Source: Geobacter metallireducens GS-15 (GTDB lineage: Bacteria; Desulfobacterota; Desulfuromonadia; Geobacterales; Geobacteraceae). From it: a stretch of DNA of 32,000 nucleotides. The notes beneath the pieces were generated by a model, which did not search any database, was not told the origin of the DNA, and saw only the letters and a list, made by a program, of their open reading frames with translations. The DNA is taken from assembly GCF_000012925.1 (NCBI RefSeq), contig NC_007517.1, positions 2,790,001 through 2,822,000 of the forward strand, in the 5' to 3' direction. Within the stretch, counting starts at the first letter, position 1. Each line of letters starts with the position of its first letter. The position numbers and the translations under genes were made by a program. This document shows positions 3,898 to 21,336 of the stretch, piece by piece.

Positions 3898-4550
3898 GCC
3901 TGATACTCGATGCACTGAGAAAAATGGAGCAGGAACGCAAGGCCCGCCAGGGTGGCGGCATTGACATCCGACCGGATGTGCTGGGGCATACCCGTATCGA
4001 ATCCGCAGGGAGGTCATGGGGAAGCAAGCCCTTCATCCTCGTTGCCGCCGGCATCGTCCTCCTGGCGGCGGGCGTCGGGACAGGCATCGTGCTGAAGAAG
4101 GGAACCGAAGGTGAAAAACCGGAACAGTCCCGCTCCGTCGACCGGAACAGGCCACTTCCCGTTGAGGAGGTGACCTCTGTCACAGTCCCTTCCCCCCCAC
4201 CCCTCACGCCCACCCCAACGGAAGCGCCACCGGCTGCCATACCGGCGAAACCGGCAGCGCCCCCAGCACCCGTCGCGGCACCGGCTCCGGCGCCGAAACC
4301 GGTTCAGCGCTCTGTCGCAGCGGAGCAGCCGGCACCTTCCGAGTATCCCGGGGCGAACCTCACCGTCTCGGGCATTGCCTGGCAGGAGGAGCGGAGCCTG
4401 CGGCGGGCCGTGGTGAACGGGAACCTTGTGGGAGAAGGGGCCGAGGTTGCCGGCGCCCGGGTGGTCGAGATCGGCGAGCGGCGCGTGAAATTCTCTCAGG
4501 GTGGCCGGACCATCAGCGTATCGCTTTCATCTCCGTTCCAGGGGCGTTGA
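3894..4550 (+). CDS. gspB: GspB/ExeB-like type II secretion accessory protein
   Basis: N-terminus MSLILDALRKMEQER, one TM segment, a Pro/Ala-rich linker, and a C-terminal GIAWQEERSLRRAVVNGNLVGEGAEVAGARVVEIGERRVKF motif typical of the T2SS protein B domain. ATGA overlap with gspA. Confidence 0.75.
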   Translation: MSLILDALRKMEQERKARQGGGIDIRPDVLGHTRIESAGRSWGSKPFILVAAGIVLLAAGVGTGIVLKKGTEGEKPEQSRSVDRNRPLPVEEVTSVTVPSPPPLTPTPTEAPPAAIPAKPAAPPAPVAAPAPAPKPVQRSVAAEQPAPSEYPGANLTVSGIAWQEERSLRRAVVNGNLVGEGAEVAGARVVEIGERRVKFSQGGRTISVSLSSPFQGR

Positions 4551-4573: not shown

Positions 4574-5380
4574 TTACCTGTTCCCCTTCTTCCGGGTGGG
4601 GCGCTCGAAGCGGCTGACGGGAATGGTGATCCCCTTCTTTACGTCGCCATAGTCCACATTGACCGCCGAGGGGATATCGCCCCCAAAGGTTGCGTAGACA
4701 GTCCCCTCGGCGGGTTCCCCACCGCCGTAGACATCCCTCACCTTCAGATAATACACCCCGCCCGCCGCGACCCGCAGAAGGTAGTTTCCCTCCTTGCCGG
4801 ACCGCTCCGAGACGAAAAGCGGCTTTCCCACCATTGTTGGCGAGGTGAACGCAAAGACGATGACCCCCTCAACGGGTTTTCCATCCCCATCGACGATTGT
4901 CCCTTCAATGGCGGTAAACCCCGCGGGACGTGCCGCTGCCGTTTCTTTGCCAAAGGGACGAACGCCGGCAATGGTCCCGGCGCCGGCCGTTTCCCCACCC
5001 TTTACGGTGAACGTCGCAGGCATTCCCTTGGCATCGGCGGCAACAAGAAAGAGCTCCCCATCCTTCGGCGGACCGATCTCCTTGCGGTTGTTCCGCTTGA
5101 TCGCCGCCAGGTAGTAGGCGCCCGCCTCCACCGCGACCGAGAACCGGCCGTCATCGTCCAGATCCTCCACATAATCGGGAACCAGCCAGTACCGGTCCGG
5201 GGCCGGCGGCGGACCGGCGCCCCGCCTGAACAGCACAACCGAGCCGTTAGCCAGCGGATTTTCCCCCTCGCCCAAAACCCGTCCGTTCAGCGTTCCGGTC
5301 TGCACCGGACCGGCCGCTACGGCGCCACTCGCCACAAGCAGACCGAGAACCGCTCCCCACAGCAGCCTGAAAATCATCAT
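4574..5380 (-). CDS. secreted protein with two tandem CarboxypepD_reg (transthyretin-like) domains
   Basis: The track ORF starts at 5581 and overlaps the giant gene. The ATG-ATG at 5380 is preceded by GGGGAGG and gives the signal peptide MMIFRLLWGAVLGLLVASGAVAAG. There are two repeats of the G-x-V-x-(G/D)-x-(G/D/E)-x-P-(L/V)...G-x-Y-x-L pattern (GTLNGRVLGEGENPLANGSVVLF..GAYYLAAI and IEGTIVDGDGKPVEGVIVFAF..GVYYLKV). Confidence 0.75.
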   Translation of the reverse strand: MMIFRLLWGAVLGLLVASGAVAAGPVQTGTLNGRVLGEGENPLANGSVVLFRRGAGPPPAPDRYWLVPDYVEDLDDDGRFSVAVEAGAYYLAAIKRNNRKEIGPPKDGELFLVAADAKGMPATFTVKGGETAGAGTIAGVRPFGKETAAARPAGFTAIEGTIVDGDGKPVEGVIVFAFTSPTMVGKPLFVSERSGKEGNYLLRVAAGGVYYLKVRDVYGGGEPAEGTVYATFGGDIPSAVNVDYGDVKKGITIPVSRFERPTRKKGNR

Positions 5381-5420
5381 TGCCTCCCCGGTGTATGGCC
5401 CACACGGCCCATGAACATTC

Positions 5421-8400
5421 CTATTTGCAGTTGCTGTCGCCCGGCACATAGGCCTGGGTCGTGGCTGACGCGGTGTTGCTGTAAGGCGATTTATCGCTGC
5501 CCCGATAGGCCCGCACCCGGTAGGTATAGCTCTTGAGGGGTTCGATGCCAATGGCATCGACATAGGTGGTAACGTTGGCACCCACCGTGGCCGTCTTCAC
5601 CCACTTGTCGTTCCATGCCTTGACCTCGATTTCGTACCCCTCTTCATCCGATGCCATGTCGGCCCAATTCAGCCTGATCGTGAAGGCATTGAGGGGGGTG
5701 GCGGTCAGGGTCTGGGGCTGGGCGGAGATGGCCGTCCCGCAGGCGATGTTCGTGTAGAGCGCCTCCCAGCCGGTGGTGCAGGCAGCGGTTTTCTCGGCCT
5801 TGACGCGGTAGCAGTACTGGATCGACGGGGTAAGGCCCGGATGCGTGTAAATCGCCGTCCCCCCCGCAACGGTGGCGATCTGCGTTGCGCTGGAGCAGTC
5901 ACCATTGTTGCACCCGTAGATGACGAAGCGGGTCTCGTCGGGGATCGGGTCGCCCCAACCGAGCAACAGCGAGGTATCCGTTGCCGGCGTGACGGTCAGG
6001 ACACCCGGCGCAACGGGAGCGGGTGTGGTTGCTGTGGCGGTGGCGCTGGCCGGCCCCGTGTACCCGGCGGTGAAGGTATACCCCGCCGACTGCTCCTCGG
6101 CGCCGACGGTTGCCGACGGCTCGGTTGCCGCGTACTTGCGCACCCTGATCCAGTCCCAGTCCGTGGCGTAGGGCTGGTCGTTGGAGGCGTCGGTATCATA
6201 GCGGCGCCCCAAGACGATGGGCTCCGCCGCCACGCCGTTGTTGACGTTCCCCGCGTTCCAGTAGAGGACGCCGGTATCGAAGTTGGTCGCCTGCATATTG
6301 ACCCACGACGCATCTATCACGGCCATGGAGTAGAGCATGTTTGCGGTGGTCGTCGGGGTTCCCCCCTTGGCGGTGTAGGAATTGTTATTGATAAAGTGGA
6401 CATAGGCGGGGTGCTCAAGCCACCCCACGTTATTGTACGACCCGGCAGAGAACCCACCGATGATCTGTCCGTCGATGGCAAACGAGGTGGTCTTCGCCTT
6501 GATGTCGAGAATGACTCCCGGCGAATAGCTGGTTTTGGATGTCAGTCGGCCCGTCACGTTGGTGCCGTGGAGATAGCCGCCGGAGACCGAGAAGCCGGTG
6601 CCGTCGGTGACCGTCCATTTGGTCGTGTCAATGGCGTTGTCGGTGAAATCATCGAAGAAGTCGAAGACGAGAGCGCCGCTGGCGATGCTTTCGGCGTTGG
6701 GATTCCCGTAGTAGAGATGGATGGTGCTGCTGGTCCTGGTCTTCACCCAGACCGTGGCGGTGGAGCTGTCGGTCTTCTTCTCGATCCAGTAGGGGAGTTC
6801 CTGGTTGGTGGCGGGATCGAAGAAGCGGATATCCGAGAAATCGGCTTTCATGCCGGCATCATAGGCAACCGTCATCTTTGTCTGGAAGTTGGGCTGGAAG
6901 TTGGCAATGGTGATCGGCTTGCGGCGGGTCCACGAACCTCCCCCGCCAGAGGAGAGCCCCACGTTCACCGCCTTGATCTGGTAGGTGTATGCGGTGCCGG
7001 GGCAGACACCGGTGTCCTCGTAGCTGGTGGCGTGACCCGGCGAATAGCCAACGAGCGAGAAGTTGCTGCATGGGTTCCCCATACACCGCTCAATCCGGAA
7101 ACCGGTGTCGGAGGGTGAATTGTCGGTCCAGCGCAGGGTGACGGAGGTACTGCTGGATGCGGAGGCGGTCAGACTGGTGGGCGCCAGGACCGTCGTGGAT
7201 GCCGAAACGATGCCGTTGGTGTTGTAGGCGCTGTAGGAGGTGCAGGATGCCGTCCGCTTGGCATGGAGCCGGTACCGGTACGTGGTGTCGGGGAGAAGCC
7301 CCACGTCATTGTAGGACGTGGGGCCCGCGGGAAGCTCGATGGTGTCCGCTCCGCTGAAATCGCACGTGGCGCCGCTGCAGCGCTCGATGACGAAGTTGGT
7401 CTCGTCGTTGCTGGCGTCGGTCCAGGTCAGGTTGATCTGGGATTCGCTTCCCCTTGTGGCGCTGAAGCCGGTCGGGGCCGCGATGGTCGGCGTGGTGATC
7501 GACTTGGTGGCGCTCGGCTGGCCGGTGTAGAGCCAGTCGGAGGTATAGCAGCCGCCGGCCTGCTCTTCAGCCCCGAGGGAAACCGTGGGAATGGCGGCGG
7601 CATAGCGGGAGGTGATTTCCTGGGCGGTGAGCGCGCGGTTGTAAATCCGCACCTCGTCTATAAGGCCGTTGAAGTAGCGGCCGGGATAGTCGAGGACACC
7701 GACCGCCAGGTTGACGGAAGAGAGATTCGGCAGATAGGGGAGTGTCGTGGCCCCCACCTGCTGGCCGTTCACGTAGAGCGTTGCCGACTGGCCGTTCAGG
7801 ACCGCAGCCACGTGGTTCCAGGCGTTGAGGGTGGCCGTGGCGCCGCTTCCCGGCACATAGTCGTTGCACCAGGTCGGCATGCTGGGACGGCCGCTGTTCT
7901 GGATGCTCAGGGCGAAACCGAGGCCGTTGCAGCCACGGCTGCTCCAGGAAACGATGCCGTTGTATGAAGCGTCGGCATAGACCTTGGGATAGATCCATGC
8001 CTCCACCGTCGCGACACTACCAGTCGGCACGTTGGGGGCCGCCCGGTTGGCCCAGGCCCCGCCACCGTTCAGGCTGAGGGCATTGCCGTAGGGGCCGCCG
8101 CTCACAACACCGTAGGGAGCGCTGAAACCGTTCATGGTCAGGTCGTTACCGGCGCCGCTGAAGTCCTTCGTGGTACCGGTGGTGGTCCCGGCATTTTCAT
8201 TGAAAGGAAAGTAGGCCATGAGGCCGGAACCGAACACCCCAGATTGGGAACCGACAGCCAATGCCGACGGGTTGCCATAATACAGATAAATGGAAGCCGT
8301 TTTGCCGGTCTTGAGCCACAAGGTGGCCGTGGCGCCGTTGGTCTTGCTCTCGATCCAGTAGGGGAGCTCTCCACCGGTGCCTTGATCGATGAAGCGCAGG

Positions 8401-11400
8401 TCGTTGAAATCGGCCTGCATGTCGGCATCGTAGGGGATGGTCAGTTTCACGAGGAAATCCGGCTGGAAGTTCGCAATCGTCAGGGGAGCGCGCCTGCTCC
8501 AGCAGCCGCCGCCGGCGGAGGAGAACCCTTCGTTGACCGGCCGAACCTGGTATGTGTAGCTCGTGCCGCTACAGACGCTTGAATCGGTATAGGAAGTGAC
8601 GCCGGCGCTGACCGAACCGACCTCGCTGAAGGTGGAGCAGCCGGCATCCTGGCACCGTTCGATCTTGAAGGAGGTTTCCGAGAAGGTGGTGTCGGTCCAC
8701 GAAGCCGCCACCTGGGTGCTTGAGGGCGTGGTGAGGGTCAGGCCCGTCGGAAGCGGGACCGTGGTGGCAACCTCCTGCTCGGCGCTGTAGGGGGTATCCC
8801 AACCGCACCCGCCCCCCTTGTAGGCCCGCACGCGGTAGCGGTAGGTCGTGTTGGGAAGGCGTCCGTAGTCGGTGTAGCTCGTCACGTTGGCGGCGACCGT
8901 CGCGATCTGGCTGAACGTCGTACAGCCGGTGCCGGTGCACCGCTCGATCTTGAAGCCGGTTTCGTCGCTGGTGTTGTCGGCCCAGCCAAGGACGACGGAT
9001 ACCTCGGACTGGGCAGTGGCCGTGAAGGCCGATGGTGCCTGGGGATCGGAGAGGGTGGCGGGAACCGCGGCGGTATAGGTTGCAGGCCAGCCGGTGACCC
9101 ACGGTTTGATGGACTTCACCCGGTACATGTACGTTCCGGCGCAGGCGGTGGTATCGCTGTAAGTTACGGTAGCAGTGGCATTCTGGGGAATGGTCACCGG
9201 GAAGCCGCTGTCAAGGGTGGTGAAGTCGCAGTTGAGCCCCTCACACCGCTCGATCTGGAATCCGTCCTCGTTGGTGGTGGTATCGGTCCAGGAAAGGTCC
9301 ACGCGGGTGCCGCTCACCGCCGTCACCAGGCCGGCCGGTGGCGCGGGGGTCGAGGTGCTCTTGCAGACCACGTCGGAATATGCCGAATCCCCCGTGGGGA
9401 TCAGCGTCTTTATCCGGTAGCAGTAAGTCTGGGCAGCATCCACCCCCCGGTCCACATAGGATGTCGTATTGGCAGCGGACGTGTCGATCTGGACGAAGTT
9501 GCTGCATCCGGCGCCGGTGCAGCGCTCGATGCCGAAGCCGGTTTCCGACCCGGAGTTGTCGCTCCAGGCGAGCGTTATCCGGTCCACTGCAAGGGGCGTC
9601 GTGTCAAGCAGCGGGAGGACTGCCTGGTAGTTGCTGAGCGCCGCCGCCCCCGTGGCCGTATGGTTGACGGTAAGGGGGATGCGGACGGCAAACGTTGCAC
9701 CGCCGAGGGTAAAGGGGCCATACTCCTTCGTGCCAGCGGTGGCGGTCGGGGCAACGGCAGCAAGCTTTCGCACCAGAACCCAGTACCAGTCGGTCTGGTA
9801 TGCCTGGCCGCCGTAATAGTCCCCGTAATAGGTCAGGCCAAGACCGAGAGGCTTATTGTTGATGGAATAGCTCTTGGACATTGGACTTATGTACCACGCG
9901 CCGGTGTCCCAGTTGTACCCCTGGATCGTCGTAGTGGCGCCATCGGTGCTGTATATTGAATAGCCCATGTTGTTGGCCGGCACCGAGGTGGTGGTCACGG
10001 CGGTAATCCATTCGCCGTATAGGTTATACCCGCCGTGGCTGGGCCCCACCGAGATGCCGAAGTAGTCGTAGGTCCCGTTGTAGACACCGCCCACCATGTG
10101 GGTGTTGGCAGCCAGGGTCGTCGTCTTGACTTTGAAGGTGGCGAGCATGCCGTTAAGCATCTTGAACGTTGACACCAGCCTTCCGCTGCTGTTGTTCCCC
10201 CGCAGGGTCCCGTTCTGGACAGTGAAGTTACCGGCGCTCCCAAGGGTCTGGGTCCACTTGGCGCCGTTGATGGCAGTGTCGGTGAAGTCGTCGAAGAACT
10301 CGAAGGTGGCATCGCCGTTGTCAACGGAGGGCGCAGTGGTGTTGCCGTAGTAGTAGTAGAGGGTCTTGGTCCCCACGGGGATGGAGGAGACTTTCTGCCA
10401 GATTCTGGTGCCTGTGGTGTTGCACTGGAGTTGCTGCACCCACTGGCTGAGAAGCGTCCCGTCACTCTCGGTGGCGCGGATATCCTCGCAGCCGGTCGTA
10501 ACGGCGGGGCTGACGGCAAAGGCCGCCGGCGGCAGGACCGTCGTCTGGGCGGTGGAGGTGACGCTCTCCAGCTCCCAGCCGCAGGATGCCGTCTTGAAGG
10601 CCGCGACCTTGTACGTGTAGCTGGTGCCGGGGGTCAAGCCGGTGTCCTTGAACGATGTGGTATTTGCGGGAAGATCGCTGCCGACCTTGCTGAAGACGGA
10701 ACACCCTGCGCCCGCACAGCGGTAAATCCGGAACCCGGTTTCATCACTGGTGGTGTCGGTCCATGCCAGATCGATCTGGACCTCAGTGCCACGGCTTGCC
10801 GTAAACCCAGAAGGGGGCATGGGGGTTGGCGTTGTCACGCTACGGGTATTACTTGCTAGCCCGTCCCACATGATGGGGAAGGTACCGCCGAAAACCGCTT
10901 CCTCCCCGAGTGTCACTGTGGGCTCCGGGGCTGCGAACTTGCGAACCCGCGCGTTGTCGAGCTTGAATACCTGGTTGTAGTTGGCGAAGCCCACCTTGAA
11001 TGATGGAGCCGTGCTGTAAGTGCTCGCATAGAAGGAGGTGGCGTCGCTGGAGCTGGTGCCGTGATAGTAGTTGGCCCCCGTAGTCGGCAAGACTTCGAAC
11101 CGGAAGTATTGCCACACATCCGAAGAGATCGCCTTCTTGTTGTCCCCGCGGCTGTTTCCATCCTCGTAGACCGCCAGGCGGTTCCCGCCGCCGTCATAGA
11201 TCGGGTAGGCCGCATAGGCGAAATCGGTGTAGCTGACGTCGGCGGTGGTCGACTTGATACCGGGCATCATATATTGGCCGCCCGAGCGGTAGTGGTTCAC
11301 CTCGAAGACAAAGGGACGGCTGAAGTTCGCAACGGAGTACATCCCCGTGGACCAGCTGCCTGGGCCGCCGCTCGACAGGAACTCGCCGCCGGTTTGTGAG

Positions 11401-14400: not shown

Positions 14401-15944
14401 TTGCGCTCGATGCGGAAGCCGTCCTCGTTGGTGGAGTTGTCGGTCCAGTCGACCTTGACGGACGTGTTGGAGAGGACCGTCGCGGTCAGGTTGCCCGGCG
14501 AATTCAGGCTCCCGGCGTCCAATACCACCTGCCAGTAGTCGTAGTCCGATGCGCCGGCGGTCCAGACATCGGACCATCCCCCAACAACCACCACGAACTC
14601 GTTGTCCGTGGTCTTGATGCCGAGCCCCACCGCCTTGTCGCTCTTACCTGCCGTCCCGTTGAAGGCCGTGTGCCAGAGCTCGCCGGCACTGGCGGCTCCG
14701 TTCTGGTACTTGATGCAGAGCATGTCGGTGGTGCCGGCACCCGTGAGGGTGTAGCCGCCCACATAGACGTTACCGCCGGCATCCAAGACGATGTCGGTGC
14801 CGAAGTCGTGCCCCCCTCCCCCCGAATCGTAGAGCTTGTCCCACGCCTTCGTGCCGTTGGTCGAATCATACCGGATGACGACGAGATCCTCGTTCCCGGT
14901 GAGGGTGGTGGCATACCCCGTCACATAGACGTTTCCCCCTCCGTCCAGCGCAAGGGCGGTCGGCTCGTCGTCCATGTTGGTCGGTCCGTTGTAGGTAGCG
15001 CTCCAGAGCAAGGCGCCATTGGTCCCGTTGTACTTTGCCGTGTAGATGTCGACGTTGGTGCCGTTATTGACCGAGGCGGCAACGACAACGTTCCCCGAGC
15101 CGTCCACCCTCACCTTCCGTCCCGCGTCGGCATTGGTGCCTGCCGAGCTGTCGCGGTTTTCCCAGAGCTTGGTGCCGGCGTAGTCGTACTTGATGGTGAG
15201 AACGTCGAAATCGGTGCCGTTCCACGACTGCCCCGTCACCGCCACTCCCCCCGGCCCCGTGGCTATCGCCGCCAGCTTGTCCGTGCCGTTGGCTGTTCCG
15301 TTCCAGGTGGCGATCCAGAGGGGGGTACCGTCGGGGTTCGGTCCGTTCACGCCGAACTTCAGGACGATGTAGTCCTCGTTGCCGGACGCGTTCTGCACAG
15401 AGCCGCCCACATAGACGTTGTTGAGCCCATCAACGGCGATGGCCGTGCCGATGTCGTTGCCGCCGGCCGGAGCGTTATAGGTATTCTCCCAGAGCTTTGC
15501 ACCGTCGCTTCCCCGGTACTTGACCGTGTAGATGTCAAAGTTGCTGCCGTTCCAGGCAAAGCCGGTGACGATGGCGTCATTGTTGGAGTCCACGGCGATG
15601 GCAGTGGCTTGGTCGGAGCCCCCCGCCCGGTTGTAGGAGGCGCGCCACGCTACCGTGCCGTCGGGATTGAACTTCACGGTCCAGTAGTCGTCATCGGTCA
15701 GGCCCGCAAGGTTACGGTAGCCGGTAACGATGAGCCGTCCGTCACCATCCACTACCGACGCCTTTGCCTCCTGCTTCCCCGCCTGGGGGGTGTCACCCGC
15801 ATCCCGGAGCTTGTCGCCGCCTGCGCCGAAAACCGGTACCGCCATGGACGCCACAAAGAACAGCAGCAAAGCCAACCGTGAAATAGCACCGGCTGCCGTG
15901 CCACGAACCAATTGTCTTAACGCATATATCATCGCAATCACCAT
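5421..15944 (-). CDS. giant secreted/cell-surface protein (~3,500 aa): 2 SBBP beta-propellers, 14 FN3 domains, 4 DUF2341 + ConA/LamG-like modules
   Basis: Uninterrupted ORF. The track start at 16181 overlaps the cytochrome gene. Plausible starts are ATG 15944 (overlapping the cytochrome stop) or ATG 15932 (GGTGA 5 nt upstream). Signal peptide: ..LRQLVRGTAAGAISRLALLLFFVASMAVPVFGAGG. Domain motifs are listed in the findings. Stop is TAG at 5421-5423. Confidence 0.9.
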   Translation of the reverse strand: MVIAMIYALRQLVRGTAAGAISRLALLLFFVASMAVPVFGAGGDKLRDAGDTPQAGKQEAKASVVDGDGRLIVTGYRNLAGLTDDDYWTVKFNPDGTVAWRASYNRAGGSDQATAIAVDSNNDAIVTGFAWNGSNFDIYTVKYRGSDGAKLWENTYNAPAGGNDIGTAIAVDGLNNVYVGGSVQNASGNEDYIVLKFGVNGPNPDGTPLWIATWNGTANGTDKLAAIATGPGGVAVTGQSWNGTDFDVLTIKYDYAGTKLWENRDSSAGTNADAGRKVRVDGSGNVVVAASVNNGTNVDIYTAKYNGTNGALLWSATYNGPTNMDDEPTALALDGGGNVYVTGYATTLTGNEDLVVIRYDSTNGTKAWDKLYDSGGGGHDFGTDIVLDAGGNVYVGGYTLTGAGTTDMLCIKYQNGAASAGELWHTAFNGTAGKSDKAVGLGIKTTDNEFVVVVGGWSDVWTAGASDYDYWQVVLDAGSLNSPGNLTATVLSNTSVKVDWTDNSTNEDGFRIERKLTSEGIWAEVGTVGANVTTFTDTGLTANSTYYYRVRSYNALNGSSNPSDEISVITLYVNYLAPTWNYVFNSSDNSEDYAEAIAVGPDNNPVVTGYSLATLTGFDYYTVKLDHTTGALLWSERYNDVDSELDIAKSVVVDGSNTAIVTGYSSLYYAPAARNINSVFTLKYPAAGGIPLWEGQYNGPGGIDDRARAIATAVDGSNNVAVVGYGKNAANNDDIYLLKYAATPPLDGFGKAIPAWSATPYDGGGNDYPSAVAFDKDGNIVITGYRHNGINYDIYTAKYNGATGVKIWDHILDGAGHGDDYGQSLAVDAVGNVYVTGSTRNAAGNDDIILVKYDGKAVPTASRVIWQKSYDGTTAGNPNADDKGITVKYDLIDDTVVVAGTTLTGTGDHDFIIIRYSSAGNVVWQKVHLRPSSDDYATAMAMDVSGNVSVVGYTGPASGLTTDAMAVKFDYAGNLLAATIYNGAANGYDQALAVTVNSLGETLVAGYTTNATGNADYLVFKGDGTPLQASSPFTASPFYTKADLAWTDTSTGEDGFTIERQVGNCTSSNPWQLLTTTAANTTAYSDTGLNVGEEYCYRVRPFKSGQPDQRWIERDIVLTSPPPPSVVTPVAANTTTVNLTWQDNTTGETGFRIFRCTGSTVSCSAADYAEIGSVASNVTTYSDTGVTAATTYTYKVLSYKTADWQSQFSTPASATTPTPTAPTGLTATRGSEGQIDLAWSDSNNDESGFKIERCTGSGCSTFTQIDTVAASATSYSDIVAVQPDTLYRYQIRAYKTSAAGWNGPYSGVAEATTTSAAPSLTSATAADTTTVSLAWTDTAGSETGYNVERCLGTTCAEQDYSVVVLTAPSATSVSDASACNSTTYTYRVRAVNQGLSRGNGGTWSRKVPLAIANFQPYFQTKVVIPYDADMKADFTDIRFYDETTQREIPYWIESRTNSTTATFWIKTGGFNTISLYYGNGGATGAGNGPLVFELFDGFASAAIDTSKWTTSGAYYSQTGGEFLSSGGPGSWSTGMYSVANFSRPFVFEVNHYRSGGQYMMPGIKSTTADVSYTDFAYAAYPIYDGGGNRLAVYEDGNSRGDNKKAISSDVWQYFRFEVLPTTGANYYHGTSSSDATSFYASTYSTAPSFKVGFANYNQVFKLDNARVRKFAAPEPTVTLGEEAVFGGTFPIMWDGLASNTRSVTTPTPMPPSGFTASRGTEVQIDLAWTDTTSDETGFRIYRCAGAGCSVFSKVGSDLPANTTSFKDTGLTPGTSYTYKVAAFKTASCGWELESVTSTAQTTVLPPAAFAVSPAVTTGCEDIRATESDGTLLSQWVQQLQCNTTGTRIWQKVSSIPVGTKTLYYYYGNTTAPSVDNGDATFEFFDDFTDTAINGAKWTQTLGSAGNFTVQNGTLRGNNSSGRLVSTFKMLNGMLATFKVKTTTLAANTHMVGGVYNGTYDYFGISVGPSHGGYNLYGEWITAVTTTSVPANNMGYSIYSTDGATTTIQGYNWDTGAWYISPMSKSYSINNKPLGLGLTYYGDYYGGQAYQTDWYWVLVRKLAAVAPTATAGTKEYGPFTLGGATFAVRIPLTVNHTATGAAALSNYQAVLPLLDTTPLAVDRITLAWSDNSGSETGFGIERCTGAGCSNFVQIDTSAANTTSYVDRGVDAAQTYCYRIKTLIPTGDSAYSDVVCKSTSTPAPPAGLVTAVSGTRVDLSWTDTTTNEDGFQIERCEGLNCDFTTLDSGFPVTIPQNATATVTYSDTTACAGTYMYRVKSIKPWVTGWPATYTAAVPATLSDPQAPSAFTATAQSEVSVVLGWADNTSDETGFKIERCTGTGCTTFSQIATVAANVTSYTDYGRLPNTTYRYRVRAYKGGGCGWDTPYSAEQEVATTVPLPTGLTLTTPSSTQVAASWTDTTFSETSFKIERCQDAGCSTFSEVGSVSAGVTSYTDSSVCSGTSYTYQVRPVNEGFSSAGGGCWSRRAPLTIANFQPDFLVKLTIPYDADMQADFNDLRFIDQGTGGELPYWIESKTNGATATLWLKTGKTASIYLYYGNPSALAVGSQSGVFGSGLMAYFPFNENAGTTTGTTKDFSGAGNDLTMNGFSAPYGVVSGGPYGNALSLNGGGAWANRAAPNVPTGSVATVEAWIYPKVYADASYNGIVSWSSRGCNGLGFALSIQNSGRPSMPTWCNDYVPGSGATATLNAWNHVAAVLNGQSATLYVNGQQVGATTLPYLPNLSSVNLAVGVLDYPGRYFNGLIDEVRIYNRALTAQEITSRYAAAIPTVSLGAEEQAGGCYTSDWLYTGQPSATKSITTPTIAAPTGFSATRGSESQINLTWTDASNDETNFVIERCSGATCDFSGADTIELPAGPTSYNDVGLLPDTTYRYRLHAKRTASCTSYSAYNTNGIVSASTTVLAPTSLTASASSSTSVTLRWTDNSPSDTGFRIERCMGNPCSNFSLVGYSPGHATSYEDTGVCPGTAYTYQIKAVNVGLSSGGGGSWTRRKPITIANFQPNFQTKMTVAYDAGMKADFSDIRFFDPATNQELPYWIEKKTDSSTATVWVKTRTSSTIHLYYGNPNAESIASGALVFDFFDDFTDNAIDTTKWTVTDGTGFSVSGGYLHGTNVTGRLTSKTSYSPGVILDIKAKTTSFAIDGQIIGGFSAGSYNNVGWLEHPAYVHFINNNSYTAKGGTPTTTANMLYSMAVIDASWVNMQATNFDTGVLYWNAGNVNNGVAAEPIVLGRRYDTDASNDQPYATDWDWIRVRKYAATEPSATVGAEEQSAGYTFTAGYTGPASATATATTPAPVAPGVLTVTPATDTSLLLGWGDPIPDETRFVIYGCNNGDCSSATQIATVAGGTAIYTHPGLTPSIQYCYRVKAEKTAACTTGWEALYTNIACGTAISAQPQTLTATPLNAFTIRLNWADMASDEEGYEIEVKAWNDKWVKTATVGANVTTYVDAIGIEPLKSYTYRVRAYRGSDKSPYSNTASATTQAYVPGDSNCK
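6132..6932 (-). repeat. DUF2341 + ConA-like module 4
   Basis: WTRRKPITIANFQPNFQTKMTVAYDAGMKADFSDIRFFDPATNQELPYWIEKKTDSSTATVWVKTRTSSTIHLYYGN, then LVFDFFDDFTDNAIDTTKWTV...TDWDWIRVRKY. Confidence 0.7.
7602..8504 (-). repeat. DUF2341 + Laminin_G_3 (LamG) module 3
   Basis: WSRRAPLTIANFQPDFLVKLTIPYDADMQADFNDLRFIDQGTGGELPYWIESKTNGATATLWLKTGKTASIYLYYGN, then a classical LamG_3 signature ..LMAYFPFNENAG..ALSLNGGG..TVEAWIYP..WNHVAAVLNGQSATLYVNGQQVG..YFNGLIDEVRIYNRALTAQEI. Confidence 0.75.
9762..10499 (-). repeat. degenerate DUF2341-like + ConA-like module 2
   Basis: CEDIRATESDGTLLSQWVQQ..TRIWQKVSSIPVGTKTLYYYYGN, then ATFEFFDDFTDTAINGAKWTQ...TDWYWVLVRKL. The N-terminal half of DUF2341 is missing. Confidence 0.55.
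10917..11732 (-). repeat. DUF2341 + ConA-like lectin/glucanase-fold module 1
   Basis: WSRKVPLAIANFQPYFQTKVVIPYDADMKADFTDIRFYDETTQREIPYWIESRTNSTTATFWIKTGGFNTISLYYGN, then LVFELFDGF..IDTSKW...LDNARVRKF. Confidence 0.7.
12882..14219 (-). repeat. intragenic repeat block: second SBBP-type beta-propeller (7-8 blades)
   Basis: DYYTVKLDHTTGALLW, VFTLKYPAAGGIPLW, DIYLLKYAATPP, DIYTAKYNGATGVKIW, DIILVKYDGKAV..VIW, DFIIIRYSSAGNVVW, DAMAVKFDYAGNLL. Confidence 0.7.
14532..15764 (-). repeat. intragenic repeat block: seven SBBP-type beta-propeller blades (propeller 1)
   Basis: Seven recurrences of D-(Y/I/V/L/M)-x-(V/I/T/C)-(V/L/I/A)-(K/R)-(Y/F)-...-G-...-W, each followed by a D..GN.YV.G strand. Examples: DYWTVKFNPDGTVAW, DIYTVKYRGSDGAKLW, DVLTIKYDYAGTKLW, DIYTAKYNGTNGALLW, DLVVIRYDSTNGTKAW. 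Confidence 0.7.
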
Positions 15945-18900
15945 TGTGTCTTGGAGTTCCAGGAGTTGTCGGGCCACACGCCAGTCGGGTGACAGTTCAC
16001 GCGACTCTGCCCTTTCCCCTTCGGGAAGGTGCCGCTCCCCTCGCCGGCGGCGCCGCCGGAAGCCACCCGGCCGCGGTGTTTCACATCGAGGCAGTTGGTC
16101 TGCATGAGCCGCGGGAGGCTCGAAACGTGGGGAACGTGGCACTTGGAGCAGGTGAATGTGTGCATGTCGTTCTTGCCCCACCCTTTCACCGTCTGGTGAA
16201 CGCGGTCAACGCCTTTCCACGGCTTCGTCTTGTCAGTGCCGGCAGTCAGGTTCGACTTGGGATGGCACCGCATGCAGAGACCGGCAAACTTCGTGTCTTC
16301 TTCCGTGATCCTGCGCCAGCCGAAAGTCCCCTGGTCAAGGTTGACATAGGGGGTCGGTGTCGGGTTCTGGTATCCTCTGCTACCCCGGCTGCCGGTGATC
16401 GCTCCGTCCAGGGGGAACTCTTCCTTGTAGGGAGAGGTCATCCAGGTCCCCTTCAGAAGCGGGACGGCATAGGCCTGATCGCTGCCGAGGGACGGGCTGA
16501 CCCCGTGGGGGTCGTGGCAGGGGGTGCAGAGACCGTCGATGGTACCCATGGCATTGTTCGTAAGGGAGGACGATGCCTTGAAGTGCCCCCCTTTGACCGT
16601 GATGCCCTTGAACGACGTCCGCTTCATGTATCCCGCCTGCCCCTGGCCGAACTTGTCGGTATCGCGATACCCCCTCACCGAGGAGATTGCGCCGAAGGTG
16701 GAGAAATAACCCCAGGGGGTGATGCCGCTGTTGCGGGTCAGGTGGCAGTCGAAGCACTGGCCGGCGCCGGTGTTGTAAGGGTTGACCGAATTGCTGTCCG
16801 AATTCGACGACGCCTTGTAGGTCATGGCGTAGCCCCCCTTGCCCGCCTGGGTCTCCTTCAGGTTGCCGCCGTTCTTGGTGCCGTTGAAGGTGACGTAGCT
16901 CGTGGTTGTGCCGTTGGCCTTGGAGCCGTGGGAGCTGTGGCAGTCGTAACACTGGACCGCCTGGCCACCGCCGCGGGTATTGGGTATGTCGCCGTCGTAG
17001 CCGGTCTGGGTGCTCCAGCCACCCCGGTTTGCCGTCGCATTGCCATGGGCGGAAAAGGCCTTGGTCTGGTTCTTCCTGGCGGCATTGGCCGTGCCGGCGT
17101 ACTTGCCCCAGGTCGTGGTGCCGGTCTGCTGGTAGCGGGCGGCGATGCTGGAGCGGTCCCACGCATACTGACGCGGGGTCTTGCAGTCGCCGAAGACATC
17201 GGTGTCGTTGTTCTGGTCGCTGTGGCAGCCGATGCAGTGGTTGGTAACCTTGGCCGCCTCGGCCCGCTCCGAGGCGGTCCCGATGTTGGAGGCCAGGAAC
17301 TGGATGGCCGTGGTGGTGTTGTAGAAGGTGGGGCGGACCCTCGGCTTCCAGACCACCAGGTCCACCTTGGCGTTCTTCACCGACGAGTAAATCTTGTAGT
17401 TGTACCCCTCGTGGTAGTCCACATCGATGAGCCCCTGGGGGGTGGCCTCCCAGTGGCACTGGTAGCAGTCGGTGTTCTTAACCTCGCCGTTGGCCCGCTG
17501 GACGTGGTGGGAGTTGGAGCGCATCTGTCCCATGATGTCCATCCGCTTGCCGATGGTTCCCGAATGACACTTGGTGCAGTCCCGCGGCAGGCCAAAGGCG
17601 GTATGCTTCGGGATCGGCTTGGCGTTCTCGTGGCAGCTGTTGCACGCCTGCTTGTTGGCGTGGCTGTCGGCGAAGCGGTGCTCGTGGCAGGTGGTGCAGA
17701 CCCGGCTCACGTTGTGGCCGTCGCCGCTCACGCTGGTGAAGTGTCTGGCGGAAGGTGAATGGCAGACGTTGCAGATGCCGTTGTAGGGCGCCGTGGTCCG
17801 GGCATAGTCAAGACCGCTCTGCTTCTTGGTGAATACCACGTCGGCACGGGTTTTCGGGATACCGAAACGGCCGTCGGAGGTGGTGGCCACCTTGTCGTGG
17901 ATCATGTAGATATTGGAGTCCCCATGGGGGTCATGGCAGTCCCAGCAGAACTTGCCCCCCTTCCAGCTTCCCTGGTAACTGGAATAGGTACCCCATATGG
18001 GTGACTTGGTAGCTGAAGGGATCTTCGTCCACCCGCCCGAATCCTTGAATGCACGGTAGTGCTTATAGCCGAAATGGCCGGCCGAAGCCCGGGCCCTCTT
18101 CGGCTTGATGAAGCGGGTCCCCGACATCAGCGGATCGAAGCCGAGCGAGTACTTCAGGGGGTCATTCTCAGGAGCCCGGTGGCATTCGGTGCACTGGCCG
18201 CCGCTGTCGTCGTCATGGCACTGGAGGCATACCCCCATCATCAGGTACTGGTTCCTGACGTCATCCTTCTGCTCCGCCGTCCAGGTTCCGGCATTGACGT
18301 CGTGCCCCTTGTGGGTGCCGCTGGCGAAGGTGCCGCTGTCGGAGTCATGGCAGTTGACGGCCGTGCAGCCGGTCACCTGGATGTGACTGGGAAACTGCGT
18401 TACCGTGCTCCAGTTGCTCTGCCTGAAAACGATACCGACGGCCGTGGCCTGGGGGGCCAGGGAATCGGCCTGCCCCACGTGGCAGCCGATGCACTCGTCG
18501 TCGCTGCGGGTCATGTGGCAGTAGACGCACTCCTTCACGAAGCGGCGCTCGTACTGGCGGTGCATTCTGAGCCGGAAGGGATTGGTGGCGTCCTTGTGCA
18601 GAGCGTTGTTGTCGTGGCAATACCAGCAGGGGTTGCCGGGGAAATTTGCCGCCGGGTTCCCCGAAACCGGATAGGCGCCGGCAGAGGAGTAGCGGCCGTG
18701 GCCGGACACCGTCCACTGGGTGAGGCTGATGCGCGCCTGGGTGCCGTTGAATGAGTTGTAGTCGTCCTGGTCCGCACCGGTCGTCCCGTGGCAGCCGAGG
18801 CAGGTGACCGCCCCCGTCACCGCCCCCCCCCAGACCGGGTCGGTTCCGCTGGTATGGCACTTGGTGTTGGAGCAGGTTTTGGCAACCGGGTTGTAGGAGC

Positions 18901-20503
18901 CTCCATCCTTGAAGACCACGTCCTTGGTCTTGTTGACGTGGTAGGTGCCGTTCAGGTGCGAAGACTCCCCCATGCTCCCGATGGGAATGCCGTTGCTGTG
19001 GCAGGAAGCGCAGTCCCCGATAACGGTGGCGGCATGGCAGTTGTCGCAGCTGAAATTCGTTTCCGAGTGGCGGGGATGGGAGTTGGCGCGGGGAGTACCC
19101 GCCCCCTGGTTGGCGAACATCGGCATCGCCTCCATCCACTCCTGGCCAGTCGGGAAGGCGTACGCACCAAGCGCCCCAAAACGTGAGGGGAGAGTCCACA
19201 CCTTCCCGCCTTCTATGCGTCCGTCATGGCAGCCGGTGTCAGAACAGCCGCCCCGCAGGTGGCCATGGCAGTCGTTGCAGCCGGCTTTGGTGGCGGTCCA
19301 GGGGAAGGCGCGGACGGTCTCGGGATCGGTGGTGCCGTCGCTGTGGCAATAGACATTGGAACAGACCTTGGTTGTTGAATCATAGGACGCATCCGTTCGC
19401 CCCACGATGTTCCACTGGGATGCCATCTTCACATCCCTCGTGCCGTTTACATGCTTCGTCGTATCGATGATGTTACCGGCACTGTCAGCCGTGGCACTGT
19501 GGCAATAGGAGCAAGGGTACTTCCGGATCCAGTGGGAGCCCACCAGCTTATTGTGGCCGTTGCTGCTCATGTTGAGATAGGGGGAGCACTTTGTTTTGTC
19601 GCTGTCCCAAGTGCCTCCCACGCTGGTGCAGTTGGCCTCGGTGCTGTCGGAGCTGCGGCCCCGGTGGCACGAATAGCACTGGATGGTGCCCGAATCGGAC
19701 CAGCGCGCTACCGTGAACGGTGCACCGCCGCGACCATCGCTGTGACAGTAGAGATTGGCGCAGGTTCCGTTGCGGGGCGGGTTCTGGCTCGGCAGATAGC
19801 CGGGATAGGTGAGGACTCCGCTGTACGTGCCGCCGCTGTTGGGCGTTTTGGTGAACTTTACGACGAGCGCGCGCTTGGCGACGCTCGTGGCGTGGGCAAA
19901 GGGACGCGCCTCGGCGGTGTGGTCCGTGTGGCACGAGGCGCAACTCCCCGTCCCGGTTCCCAGGTAGTCGCCGTGTTTCTTGCCGGAACCAGAGACCGCC
20001 GGGTGGTTTCCGTCGCTTGGCGCCGCGCCATGGCAGGCGGAACAGCCGGTCGGGGCAGCAAGGGGCGAAGAGCCCCAAATCGGGGTCGCCGCCTCGAAGT
20101 GGCAGTTGATGTTCGTGCAGCTTCCGGGGGTGGGAGTTGCGCTCTGGGGGGATGAGGTGTGATTGCGGAAGGCGGTTGCAAGGGGTGAATTGTTGATGCG
20201 GCTCGAAATCCTGATGCTGCCGTTGCGGTGAGAAGCAGTGTACGAAGCGCTCCCCGGATGGCATTGGGAGCAGCTGCCAGGCACGGCGGAGGCGTCCATG
20301 TGGGTTCGGTGGTTCCCCTGAAAACCGCCCGAGCTTATGTTGCGGTAGGCATTGTCAGCGGGCCGGTAATCCACCGGGCTCGAAGAGCCGTGGCAGCTGT
20401 AACATTCCAGCGCTCCTTCGGCTGGGCCGGCCAGTGACAAGACGCCGACAAACAATAGCATCAACGACGAGCCAACTCTCTGACAAGTGCTCTTGCCTAC
20501 CAC
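15938..20503 (-). CDS. giant multiheme c-type cytochrome (~1,520 aa; 27 CXXCH + 6 CX4CH motifs)
   Basis: The track ORF begins with TTG at 20524. The in-frame GTG at 20503 follows GGGGAGGGG by 5-6 nt and gives the signal peptide M-VGKSTCQRVGSSLMLLFVGVLSLAGPAEGA; ATG 20461 is another option. The first heme motif CYSCH is at 20390-20404 and the last CSKCH at 16136-16150. Stop is TGA at 15938-15940. Confidence 0.9.
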   Translation of the reverse strand: MVGKSTCQRVGSSLMLLFVGVLSLAGPAEGALECYSCHGSSSPVDYRPADNAYRNISSGGFQGNHRTHMDASAVPGSCSQCHPGSASYTASHRNGSIRISSRINNSPLATAFRNHTSSPQSATPTPGSCTNINCHFEAATPIWGSSPLAAPTGCSACHGAAPSDGNHPAVSGSGKKHGDYLGTGTGSCASCHTDHTAEARPFAHATSVAKRALVVKFTKTPNSGGTYSGVLTYPGYLPSQNPPRNGTCANLYCHSDGRGGAPFTVARWSDSGTIQCYSCHRGRSSDSTEANCTSVGGTWDSDKTKCSPYLNMSSNGHNKLVGSHWIRKYPCSYCHSATADSAGNIIDTTKHVNGTRDVKMASQWNIVGRTDASYDSTTKVCSNVYCHSDGTTDPETVRAFPWTATKAGCNDCHGHLRGGCSDTGCHDGRIEGGKVWTLPSRFGALGAYAFPTGQEWMEAMPMFANQGAGTPRANSHPRHSETNFSCDNCHAATVIGDCASCHSNGIPIGSMGESSHLNGTYHVNKTKDVVFKDGGSYNPVAKTCSNTKCHTSGTDPVWGGAVTGAVTCLGCHGTTGADQDDYNSFNGTQARISLTQWTVSGHGRYSSAGAYPVSGNPAANFPGNPCWYCHDNNALHKDATNPFRLRMHRQYERRFVKECVYCHMTRSDDECIGCHVGQADSLAPQATAVGIVFRQSNWSTVTQFPSHIQVTGCTAVNCHDSDSGTFASGTHKGHDVNAGTWTAEQKDDVRNQYLMMGVCLQCHDDDSGGQCTECHRAPENDPLKYSLGFDPLMSGTRFIKPKRARASAGHFGYKHYRAFKDSGGWTKIPSATKSPIWGTYSSYQGSWKGGKFCWDCHDPHGDSNIYMIHDKVATTSDGRFGIPKTRADVVFTKKQSGLDYARTTAPYNGICNVCHSPSARHFTSVSGDGHNVSRVCTTCHEHRFADSHANKQACNSCHENAKPIPKHTAFGLPRDCTKCHSGTIGKRMDIMGQMRSNSHHVQRANGEVKNTDCYQCHWEATPQGLIDVDYHEGYNYKIYSSVKNAKVDLVVWKPRVRPTFYNTTTAIQFLASNIGTASERAEAAKVTNHCIGCHSDQNNDTDVFGDCKTPRQYAWDRSSIAARYQQTGTTTWGKYAGTANAARKNQTKAFSAHGNATANRGGWSTQTGYDGDIPNTRGGGQAVQCYDCHSSHGSKANGTTTSYVTFNGTKNGGNLKETQAGKGGYAMTYKASSNSDSNSVNPYNTGAGQCFDCHLTRNSGITPWGYFSTFGAISSVRGYRDTDKFGQGQAGYMKRTSFKGITVKGGHFKASSSLTNNAMGTIDGLCTPCHDPHGVSPSLGSDQAYAVPLLKGTWMTSPYKEEFPLDGAITGSRGSRGYQNPTPTPYVNLDQGTFGWRRITEEDTKFAGLCMRCHPKSNLTAGTDKTKPWKGVDRVHQTVKGWGKNDMHTFTCSKCHVPHVSSLPRLMQTNCLDVKHRGRVASGGAAGEGSGTFPKGKGQSRVNCHPTGVWPDNSWNSKTQW

Positions 20504-20601
20504 GCCACCCCTCCCCCATTGCAATGCAAAGCACAGATTACGTCAAATGACTGAATATCACGCTCTTGTTTACAAGCGCCTCAGATCATTAGTGAATATC
20601 T

Positions 20602-20629
20602 CTTATATACCTAATAATCCAATCAACAA
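20602..20629 (-). promoter_or_regulatory. sigma-70-like promoter candidate for the cytochrome operon
   Basis: On the - strand: TTGTTG (20629-20624), 16-nt spacer, TATAAG (20607-20602). It sits inside the AT-rich island, about 95 nt upstream of GTG 20503. Confidence 0.3.
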
Positions 20630-20738
20630 GTTATTGACACTATCCCTAGCCAAATAGCCGGCAACGTGGGTGAGCCACACACAAAAATATGCAATATCAC
20701 CAAGTTGTATCTTGTCTGTAAATGTTTGAATGAAAAAA

Positions 20739-20755
20739 ATGCAATAGTCGAGCCC
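20739..20755 (-). promoter_or_regulatory. sigma-54-like -24/-12 candidate for the cytochrome operon
   Basis: The - strand reads GGGCTCGACTATTGCAT (consensus TGGCAC-N5-TTGCA). GG/GC spacing is correct and the -12 element TTGCA is perfect. It would give a leader of about 225 nt. Confidence 0.3.
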
Positions 20756-20816
20756 ATTCTCGAACAATAAAGGTGAAGATCTCCCCGGCGCGCAGAAGGA
20801 GATCAGTAGAAGGAAT

Positions 20817-20844
20817 AAAAAAAGGAGCCGCTCGGCTCCTTTTT
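20817..20844 (-). terminator. rho-independent (bidirectional-looking) terminator ending the rmlB-rmlD-cupin transcript
   Basis: AAAAAAA-GGAGCC-gctc-GGCTCC-TTTTT. On the - strand the stem is followed by seven U residues. Confidence 0.85.
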
Positions 20845-20955
20845 CAATACACCTATTTTCCCTTGGGATACATGTCGCTGGGGGGAGCGACGCCCCGTCC
20901 TTCAACCGGTCGATACTATGCGGCTACCGTCCTGGCGAGGAGACGCCGTTGTCGC

Positions 20956-21336
20956 CTAATCAGTTTCTCCGGAGAAAGTCTCCGTTCCCGGCTCACAGCG
21001 ATTGTAGTCGTCGTCGAAGCGGACAATGTCGTCTTCGCCCAGATACTCGCCGCTCTGTACCTCGATGATGACAAGGGGGATCTTGCCGGGGTTCTCCAGC
21101 CGGTGGTTCCGGCCGATGGGAATGAAGGTGGACTCGTTCACGTTGACCACATACTCCTCATCACCGCAGGTCACCCTGGCAGTGCCGGAAACCACGATCC
21201 AGTGCTCGCTCCGGTGGTGGTGCATCTGGAGCGACAGCCGCTGCCCCGGATTCACTTCGATCCGCTTGATCTTGTAACTGGTGTTTTCCTCAAGGACCGT
21301 GTAGGTCCCCCAGGGGCGTTCTCCTCGTTCCAACAC
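20956..21336 (-). CDS. mannose-6-phosphate isomerase type II C-terminal cupin domain protein
   Basis: 126 aa. ERPWGTYTVLEE..YKIKRIEVNPGQRLSLQMHHHRSEHWIVVSGTA..NESTFIPIGRNHRLENPG..LVIIEVQSGEYLGEDDIVRFDDDY is the PMI-type cupin signature. GTG start is preceded by GGGAGGGAG. Confidence 0.85.
   Translation of the reverse strand: MLERGERPWGTYTVLEENTSYKIKRIEVNPGQRLSLQMHHHRSEHWIVVSGTARVTCGDEEYVVNVNESTFIPIGRNHRLENPGKIPLVIIEVQSGEYLGEDDIVRFDDDYNRCEPGTETFSGETD

Follow-up and report, generated by a model that had tools for sequence, protein, structure and literature searches.

What does a very large Geobacter cytochrome do, and with what does it work? The question is raised by a stretch of 32,000 nucleotides from Geobacter metallireducens GS-15 (contig NC_007517.1, positions 2,790,001 to 2,822,000; hereafter the window), whose minus strand carries the cytochrome gene Gmet_2470 and, directly behind it, Gmet_2469, the gene for a giant protein in which no heme motifs were noted. 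For the very large Geobacter cytochromes there is neither a solved structure nor a clear role, and the authors of one Geobacter cytochrome paper write that the extracellular function of such proteins is not known to them. We find that the cytochrome gene is always accompanied by, or fused to, a giant heme-free protein of surface type, which suggests that the two work as one unit. Our preferred reading, to which we would give a probability of about 0.6, is that Gmet_2470 is an exported heme wire working with Gmet_2469 as a surface scaffold.

The first point to establish is how strict the association between the two genes is. In the partner protein, a domain scan identifies delta-60/SBBP beta-propeller repeats, six fn3, four DUF2341 and one Laminin_G_3 (LamG) domain. 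Its first 480 amino acids are the only stretch conserved across the paired loci, the remainder of the protein varying from about 2000 to more than 3500 amino acids. A scan of species-representative genomes gave 281 places that encode a relative of Gmet_2470. At 75 loci the sequence runs on for 1.5 kb or more past the cytochrome gene, and in every one of the 75 a homolog of the partner's N-terminal 480 residues comes immediately after it in the same orientation; the gap between cytochrome and partner falls between −77 and +119 nt in 74 of them. The 7-nt overlap between the Gmet_2470 stop and the Gmet_2469 start recurs identically in eight other loci. The scan for the partner used an alignment of eight sequences, an alignment of 28 being too divergent. 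The reverse test, carried out in metagenomes and starting from the partner propeller, found the C-terminal half of the cytochrome upstream in all 27 loci with some upstream DNA and a partner of at least 36% identity. None of 15 propellers that are less similar (35% identity or lower) and have 1 kb or more of DNA on their upstream side was preceded by the cytochrome. In five loci from different genera, the pair is kept within surroundings that are otherwise unrelated.

The two proteins also diverge together. Distance matrices for the cytochrome half and for the propeller are correlated with r = 0.82, and none of 999 permutations gave a value as high. Because this correlation persists with several paralogous pairs per genome among the loci, the pair appears to duplicate and move as a unit. 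Three to five paralogous copies of the whole pair are found in single genomes, namely the Desulfuromonadaceae metagenome-assembled genome (MAG) SMAG_U4716 (loci L009, L035, L037, L056 and L070) and Geobacter sp. OR-1 (loci L022, L027 and L043). The C-terminal module of the cytochrome also occurs outside the Desulfuromonadia, in Nitrospirota/Thermodesulfovibrionia, in Desulfobulbia and in one Gammaproteobacteria MAG. Taken together, the paralogous copies and the taxon spread suggest that the pair has been duplicated and horizontally transferred as a unit.

Clusters in which an NHL beta-propeller gene accompanies cytochromes (D. ferrophilus DFE_0451 and DFE_0463; Gmet_0556-0558) resemble this pair in that the propeller gene adjoins genes for large outer-surface cytochromes. 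They differ in that the propeller of Gmet_2469 is of the delta-60/SBBP type, forms the head of an fn3/LamG protein of 2000-3500 amino acids, and is paired strictly in both directions. An NHL-repeat protein of G. metallireducens, which we take to be that of locus tag Gmet_0556, is said to have been found essential for Fe(III) oxide reduction by Smith et al. in 2013. Directly upstream of the pair in Geomonas sp. RF6 (locus L008, positions 4918-9857), a 1202-amino-acid cytochrome is followed by a 439-amino-acid NHL beta-propeller protein, and this second pair indicates that the pairing of cytochrome and propeller recurs with a different propeller type.

The cytochrome itself is built in two parts, as the first-pass annotation of the sequence had proposed. 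The N-terminal region is dense in hemes and contains four good and one divergent CX4CH...CXXCH unit, these being repeats of the TIGR01904 kind, whilst the C-terminal core module has about one heme per 52 residues (residue numbers throughout follow the 1528-amino-acid open reading frame (ORF) that begins with TTG at position 20524). Mean identity to homologs is 62% for the C-terminal half (residues 791-1528) and 56% for the N-terminal region. When the C-terminal half was searched against 1.84 billion representative proteins, 614 matches were obtained at E ≤ 0.001 and 222 at E ≤ 1e-30. The distant matches cover only residues ∼910-1528, which in those proteins follow N-terminal heme regions that differ widely in length and type; the C-terminal part therefore recombines as an independent module, and the bipartite build is real. 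On this evidence, Gmet_2470 is best described as a variable heme-rich extension joined to a conserved core of about 600 residues and about 12 hemes.

In its distant homologs, the same module is found fused to heme-free domains. Among representative proteins (50% identity clusters), 109 have a match that extends to the module's end. Like Gmet_2470, 67 of these end where the module ends, and 38 run on for 300-1200 further residues; no CXXCH was present beyond the module in the 17 fused cases examined. Pfam searches of five fused homologs gave fn3, RCC1-type beta-propeller, Laminin_G_3 or Ig domains in three. The resemblance of the fused tails to Gmet_2469 is weak and confined to fn3 and LamG domains; the tails share domain classes with it and we rejected the idea that they are its orthologs. 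The module is thus tied to heme-free propeller, fn3 and LamG arrays either within one polypeptide or through the next gene, which constitutes Rosetta-stone evidence for a joint function.

Two further features of these ends were observed. Gmet_2470 finishes in a conserved ...WPDNxWNxxTPW (window 15941-15961, minus strand), with 78 out of 103 homologs terminating exactly on the Trp, and in fused homologs this terminal Trp marks the boundary to the heme-free domains; judged from its conservation, the Trp-containing end could be a docking or recognition tag. Many fused homologs (P0166, P0198, P0202, P0222, P0230, P0233 and others) also share a conserved heme-free end domain in their C-terminal ∼450 amino acids, with the pattern …SSCPF(V/L)(Y/F)xWDG…Y…TD…EPLPFHGMSxYPY…YNTR. 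In the two that were scanned (P0166 and P0233), Pfam assigned no family to it at E ≤ 1e-4.

How might such a pair work? We propose that Gmet_2470 would be a Sec-exported c-type cytochrome of about 160 kDa that covalently binds about 34 hemes, at 27 CXXCH sites, six CX4CH sites of the cytochrome c3 kind and probably one long-loop C-x32-CH site at the extreme C-terminus. Most or all of the hemes would likely be bis-His ligated, forming an intramolecular electron-transfer chain. The gene would be co-transcribed, and probably translationally coupled, with Gmet_2469, whose propeller would bind the C-terminal module of the cytochrome, and the long non-heme fn3/DUF2341/LamG array would anchor the heme wire, or lengthen it, on the cell surface or within the biofilm matrix. 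For the direction and role of electron flow, we infer that the wire may exchange electrons with minerals, electrodes or partner cells.

A wider form of this proposal is possible, and we hold it only tentatively: that Gmet_2470 and Gmet_2469 represent an undescribed, widespread two-part device for extracellular electron transfer, consisting of a core of about 12 hemes with a long-loop site that is always joined to a giant heme-free array. The join would be either covalent, as in the fused relatives, or made by a delta-60 propeller 'socket' supplied by the next gene, and the variable N-terminal CX4CH/CXXCH units would determine how long the wire is. The scaffold would then hold a single-polypeptide heme wire of 30-40 nm off the cell, as an alternative to polymerised cytochrome filaments.

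The cytochrome could instead be a periplasmic electron store ('capacitor') or a relay spanning the periplasm, the giant neighbour being an unrelated adhesin that shares its transcript. The protein has a Sec signal and lacks a lipobox, and the operon encodes neither a porin nor a secretion partner; one source predicts an 'Extracellular/Periplasmic' location, and the capacitor idea for very large cytochromes exists in the literature. If the functions of the two proteins were unrelated, however, it would be hard to explain a pairing that is strict in both directions (75/75 and 27/27), or why relatives carry the module covalently fused to fn3, propeller and LamG arrays. Moreover, fn3/LamG arrays of 2000-3500 amino acids are typical of surface proteins, and the class of cytochromes with about 35 hemes is predicted to be extracellular. 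We therefore regard a periplasmic role as unlikely.

It is also conceivable that the partner serves biogenesis alone, with the propeller assisting, as a chaperone, in the folding, export or anchoring of a very large cytochrome that afterwards works by itself or polymerises like OmcS and OmcZ. This would fit the conservation of the partner in its N-terminal propeller alone, the rest varying in length (∼2000 to >3500 amino acids) and in domains, and the near-invariant cytochrome C-terminus, ...WNxVTPW, could be the recognition tag. A chaperone, however, would not need 2000-3500 amino acids of fn3, LamG and DUF2341 domains, the non-heme array remains covalently attached in the fused relatives, and there is no likeness in sequence or fold to any solved filament cytochrome. 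These points make a purely biogenetic partner improbable.

Several observations weigh against an exported heme wire with a surface scaffold. Linkage alone would also produce strict synteny and correlated divergence, neither of which proves binding. The operon contains no outer-membrane porin or dedicated secretion gene. The predicted location of Gmet_2470 is given as 'Unknown' in one paper and 'Extracellular/Periplasmic' in another, and its expression changes, described below, are modest. No deletion phenotype of Gmet_2470 was found in the literature searched, and the gene is absent from the 18 mutants listed by Holmes et al. The AlphaFold2 models of the two halves are weak and have no match in the PDB, as detailed below. 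The C-terminal cysteine pair counted above as a heme site could be a disulfide with an adjacent ligand His instead.

The heme motifs themselves are clear. A regular-expression count on the translation returned the 27 CXXCH and six CX4CH motifs of the first-pass annotation, the latter at the same residues (136, 255, 388, 427, 551 and 720) and with the same peptides. Five of the CX4CH motifs are followed by a CXXCH 17-39 residues on, the individual spacers being 18, 21, 21, 17 and 39 residues; 21 motifs fall within residues 1-785 and 12 beyond, and the CxxCH-x-PH forms CWDCHDPHG (860), CTPCHDPHG (1333) and CSKCHVPH (1459) are present as described there. The same approach found no CX3CH and no CXXCK. 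In 2000 shuffles of the protein, the mean number of motifs was 0.32 and the maximum three, so the motif density cannot be attributed to chance. In an alignment of 102 homologs (1440-1740 amino acids, 50-70% identity to Gmet_2470), all 33 motifs are at least 97% conserved and each of the six CX4CH sites is 99-100% conserved. Among the 120 best homologs, the number of motifs lies between 24 and 56 (median 33). The 102-homolog alignment also contains 36 non-motif His that are at least 90% conserved, roughly the number of distal ligands that 34 bis-His hemes would require. By these 33 conserved motifs and an export signal recognised by inspection, Gmet_2470 classifies as a multiheme c-type cytochrome. 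Three cysteines stand apart from the motifs. C299 and C313 (window 19586-19630, minus strand), each 91% conserved, lie inside a small insert (EANCTSVGGTWDSDKTKCSP) and from their conservation may form a disulfide; the lone C1114 is 88% conserved and is without an obvious partner.

The heme number is not new. It had been suggested at first pass that 33 sites exceed a 27-heme maximum, which is outdated. Gmet_2470 itself, like Gmet_0571 and Gmet_0581, is given 34 hemes in published tables (2022, PMC10989804 for Gmet_2470), the G. sulfurreducens protein GSU0702 is credited with 35 and omcN with 34, and one Anaeromyxobacter cytochrome has 40 motifs. A survey of the Desulfuromonadia reports up to 87 motifs per polypeptide, and a spike near 35 motifs that is made up solely of proteins predicted to be extracellular. 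The claimed novelty falls because Gmet_2470 is an annotated and published gene, already tabulated as a 34-heme cytochrome and present in GenBank since the GS-15 genome was sequenced; its heme count changes nothing by itself. The published counts for Gmet_2470 differ, being 34 in one source (Holmes 2022) and 27, evidently CXXCH alone, in another (the 2025 cyclic di-GMP (c-di-GMP) paper).

The repeated units place the protein in a known family. Membership of GSu_C4xC__C2xCH, suggested at first pass, is borne out by PF09698 (58 bits against a cut-off of 21.7, in three stretches) and TIGR01904 (98.9 against 27, in four stretches). The likeness to the doubled-CXXCH family proposed there did not survive, since Paired_CXXCH_1 (PF09699) scored 12.9 bits against a cut-off of 20.6 (E = 0.089); some distant fused homologs (P0166, P0185 and P0233) do pass this model. 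Cytochrome_C7 (PF14522; 70.4 bits against 24.8) and Cytochrom_c3_2 (PF14537; 32.5 against 25) both pass, the model for MtrC/MtrF domains II/IV (PF22113) gives a marginal, domain-level match (36 bits against 30, best stretch 554-728), and the DmsE family TIGR03508 fails (15.5 bits against 192). The CX4CH...CXXCH units align with each other in a motif-anchored alignment, and through that alignment alone are they visible, self-BLAST having found no internal repeats. A PDB search (phmmer and profile) returned no relative, with one chance match at E ∼0.5. AlphaFold2 models of the two halves, built from 61-sequence alignments, gave predicted local distance difference test scores (pLDDT) of 58.6 and 68.1 and predicted template modelling scores (pTM) of 0.60 and 0.50, respectively; with these low-confidence half-models, Foldseek found nothing in the PDB at E < 5.

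The same searches bear on whether the protein might be a redox enzyme, the heme-sparse C-terminal module carrying a catalytic open-coordination heme as in octaheme reductases. The lower heme density and higher conservation of the C-terminal half would be in keeping with this, yet neither CXXCK nor any other known catalytic motif occurs, the conserved His suffice for bis-His ligation of every heme, and no profile or fold match to any solved enzyme was obtained. We consider an enzymatic role very improbable indeed.

A single Cys-His dyad, C1511-H1512, overlooked at first pass, lies outside the 33 motifs, and together with C1478 it forms a C...CH pair. Dyad and C1478 are 99% conserved across the 102 homologs, in which the intervening loop is Gly-rich and 28-74 residues long. 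The pair is retained in 17 out of 18 distant fused homologs, with a loop of 39-109 residues, within the signature LMxTNC...CH...WNxVTxW. Curators list exactly one heme more than the regular expression finds, for Gmet_2470 (34 against 33) as well as in G. daltonii (37 against 36), and for this reason we take the pair to be the 34th site; judged from these conserved residues, it is probably a heme site, bringing the tally for Gmet_2470 to 27 CXXCH, six CX4CH and one probable C-Xn-CH. A C-x(28-109)-CH site would be far longer than the longest heme-attachment motif in the literature, CX17CH. If heme-loaded, it would widen the known range of such motifs, and one would have to ask which cytochrome maturation system is responsible for it.

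The length of this loop is also the main argument for a protein with fewer hemes than motifs, in which some CX4CH and/or the C-x32-CH site would be empty, C1478 and C1511 would form a disulfide and H1512 would be a distal ligand. A spacer of 28-109 residues goes far beyond the CX17CH limit, and the number of conserved His fits 33 hemes as well as 34. On the other side, CX4CH is an established heme-binding motif in the literature and the six sites are 99-100% conserved, the invariant dyad at 1511-1512 is a signature of proximal ligation, and curators arrive at 34 hemes here and 37 in G. daltonii, each one above the regular-expression count. Partial heme loading therefore seems rather unlikely.

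Comparison with known systems sets the exported heme wire in context. The units of Gmet_2470 have the form H-x-N-G ... CxNxxCH-(S/T)-(D/S)-G ... W ... CxxCH-G of the TIGR01904/PF09698 family, but the family model covers only the ∼70-residue repeat and neither the C-terminal module nor the partner. CX4CH is the heme motif of tetraheme cytochrome c3, and the dodecaheme GSU1996 is designed as a chain of small c7-type heme domains in one polypeptide. Gmet_2470 resembles the cytochromes c3 and c7 (PpcA) in its c7 and c3 Pfam matches above cut-off and in combining CX4CH with predicted bis-His ligation, both c3 features; unlike these and GSU1996, it is far larger, shows no recognisable similarity to solved structures and has an additional C-terminal module that is not of c7 type. 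With the decahemes MtrC and OmcA it would share long-range extracellular electron transfer, besides the marginal domain match given above, but it has no lipobox, and there is no MtrAB-like porin or periplasmic decaheme gene in the 32-kb window. The same presumed role links it to the OmcS, OmcE and OmcZ filaments, from which it differs in that no sequence or fold match was found and in that its length would come from one polypeptide and not from polymerisation. Of the same organism group and similar in heme number are Gmet_0571, Gmet_0581/OmcN (34 hemes), GSU0702 (35), OmcN (34) and GSU2887 (27), which are predicted to be outer-surface or extracellular. The nearest analogy in print is a G. metallireducens cytochrome with 27 motifs, for which a length of 350 Å (35 nm) has been predicted; scaled up simply from it, a linear arrangement of 34 hemes could reach 30-45 nm.

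Published expression data show modest changes. In co-cultures growing by direct interspecies electron transfer (DIET), Gmet_2470 was 5.7-, 2.1- and 1.7-fold higher with G. sulfurreducens than with three Methanosarcina species, the 5.7-fold figure being that relative to M. barkeri, and its expression was raised (log2 1.09) in a strain with high c-di-GMP. Mutants lacking Gmet_0571 or Gmet_0581 have been tried in DIET co-cultures. In the literature searched, Gmet_2470 appears merely in expression tables, and we found no description of a strict cytochrome-scaffold coupling or obligate partner gene, no statement on the two-part build, and no description of the conserved long-loop C...CH pair or of a 34th site. 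The coupling and the long-loop pair are the only parts of this work not found described, and we regard them as of moderate interest. A strict and evolutionarily mobile link between cytochrome and scaffold, which also occurs as fusions and extends over Geobacterales, Desulfuromonadales, Desulfobulbia and Nitrospirota/Thermodesulfovibrionia, offers a concrete hypothesis for genetics and structure work.

The identification of the gene is secure. The encoded protein is 100% identical to ABB32695.1 (further accessions Q39SS9 and WP_148206084.1), whose record is titled 'cytochrome c [Geobacter metallireducens GS-15]'. The minus strand of the window carries, in order, a methyl-accepting chemotaxis protein (MCP) gene, trpA, accD, folC, lptD, rmlB, rmlD, a cupin gene, Gmet_2470, the giant fn3 protein gene and a gene for a CarboxypepD_reg protein. 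With trpA being Gmet_2477 in the genome paper, the order down to 2470, 2469 and 2468 agrees with the published tables, which establishes the ORF as the already annotated Gmet_2470. Three starts appear in public records: TTG at 20524, which gives the longest ORF (15938..20524, minus strand, 1528 amino acids), GTG at 20503 (1521 amino acids, GenBank) and ATG at 20461 (1507 amino acids, RefSeq). Of these, only the GTG has both a GGAGG ribosome-binding site (RBS), 6 nt on its 5' side, and a signal peptide whose n-region is charged. The first heme motif, CYSCH, begins three residues past the predicted cleavage site; inspection of the signal sequence revealed no lipobox, and the Holmes supplement records a signal peptide as 'yes' for Gmet_2470. 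The coordinates of all features are collected in Table 1.

Table 1. Features of the Gmet_2470-Gmet_2469 locus, in window coordinates
Feature	Position	Strand	Basis or remark
Gmet_2470, cytochrome gene	15938..20503	−	GTG start, 1521 amino acids plus stop; equals the GenBank CDS
Predicted Sec signal peptide of Gmet_2470	20414..20503	−	MVGKSTCQRVGSSLMLLFVGVLSLAGPAEG, then cleavage before A; translation inspected by eye
Heme-dense N-terminal region, residues 38-790	18155..20413	−	21 motifs
Conserved C-terminal core module, residues ∼910-1528	15941..17797	−	11 CXXCH plus the C...CH pair
Non-canonical pair C1478-x32-C1511-H1512 (LMQTNC...VNCHP)	15989..16093	−	Probable 34th heme site; conservation in homologs
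ATGGTGA overlap, Gmet_2469 start on last sense codon and stop of Gmet_2470	15938..15944	−	Junction sequence CAATGGTGATT
Gmet_2469, partner gene, 3507 amino acids	5421..15944	−	Signal peptide and domain scan
First 480 amino acids of Gmet_2469 (signal peptide and ∼8 propeller blades)	14505..15944	−	Conserved in all paired loci
Gmet_2468, 268 amino acids	4574..5380	−	Signal peptide and CarboxypepD_reg; GGGGAGG RBS; start ∼40 nt past the partner stop
Intrinsic terminator, 12-bp stem and T run	20818..20845	−	Ends the upstream rmlB-rmlD-cupin operon
Sigma-70-like promoter candidate, TTTACA-18-GATATT	20693..20722	−	Consensus match alone; ∼190 nt upstream of the Gmet_2470 start

By closing the preceding operon, the terminator, a strong one, sets the cytochrome operon apart from its upstream neighbours. 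The promoter call is weak, because sigma-70 matches in the region are no more numerous than in shuffled sequence. Between the terminator and the start codon lies an AT-rich leader of about 300 nt (20530-20820, minus strand), the bin 20001-21000 having a GC content of 0.55 against ∼0.63 elsewhere. c-di-GMP riboswitches often precede Geobacter cytochrome genes; an Rfam search of the leader gave no riboswitch and no c-di-GMP element, with sub-threshold noise over the terminator only.

Downstream of the partner, a homolog of Gmet_2468 is present in 12 out of 39 loci, so we rejected it as a third obligatory component and regard it as an optional third gene; in G. metallireducens it is reported 2.9-fold up in a DIET comparison. 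Beyond the operon, on the plus strand (2209-4550), a divergent gene pair encodes an ExeA-like AAA_22 ATPase with a peptidoglycan-binding domain and a T2SSB/GspC-like protein. These ExeA-like and GspB/C-like genes were considered as candidates for a dedicated secretion system and set aside, since they were not seen in the other loci inspected. The ATPase scores 292.8 bits against a cut-off of 324.5 for the XrtA/PEP-CTERM-associated ATPase model TIGR03015, and the pair may relate to secretion or exopolysaccharide.

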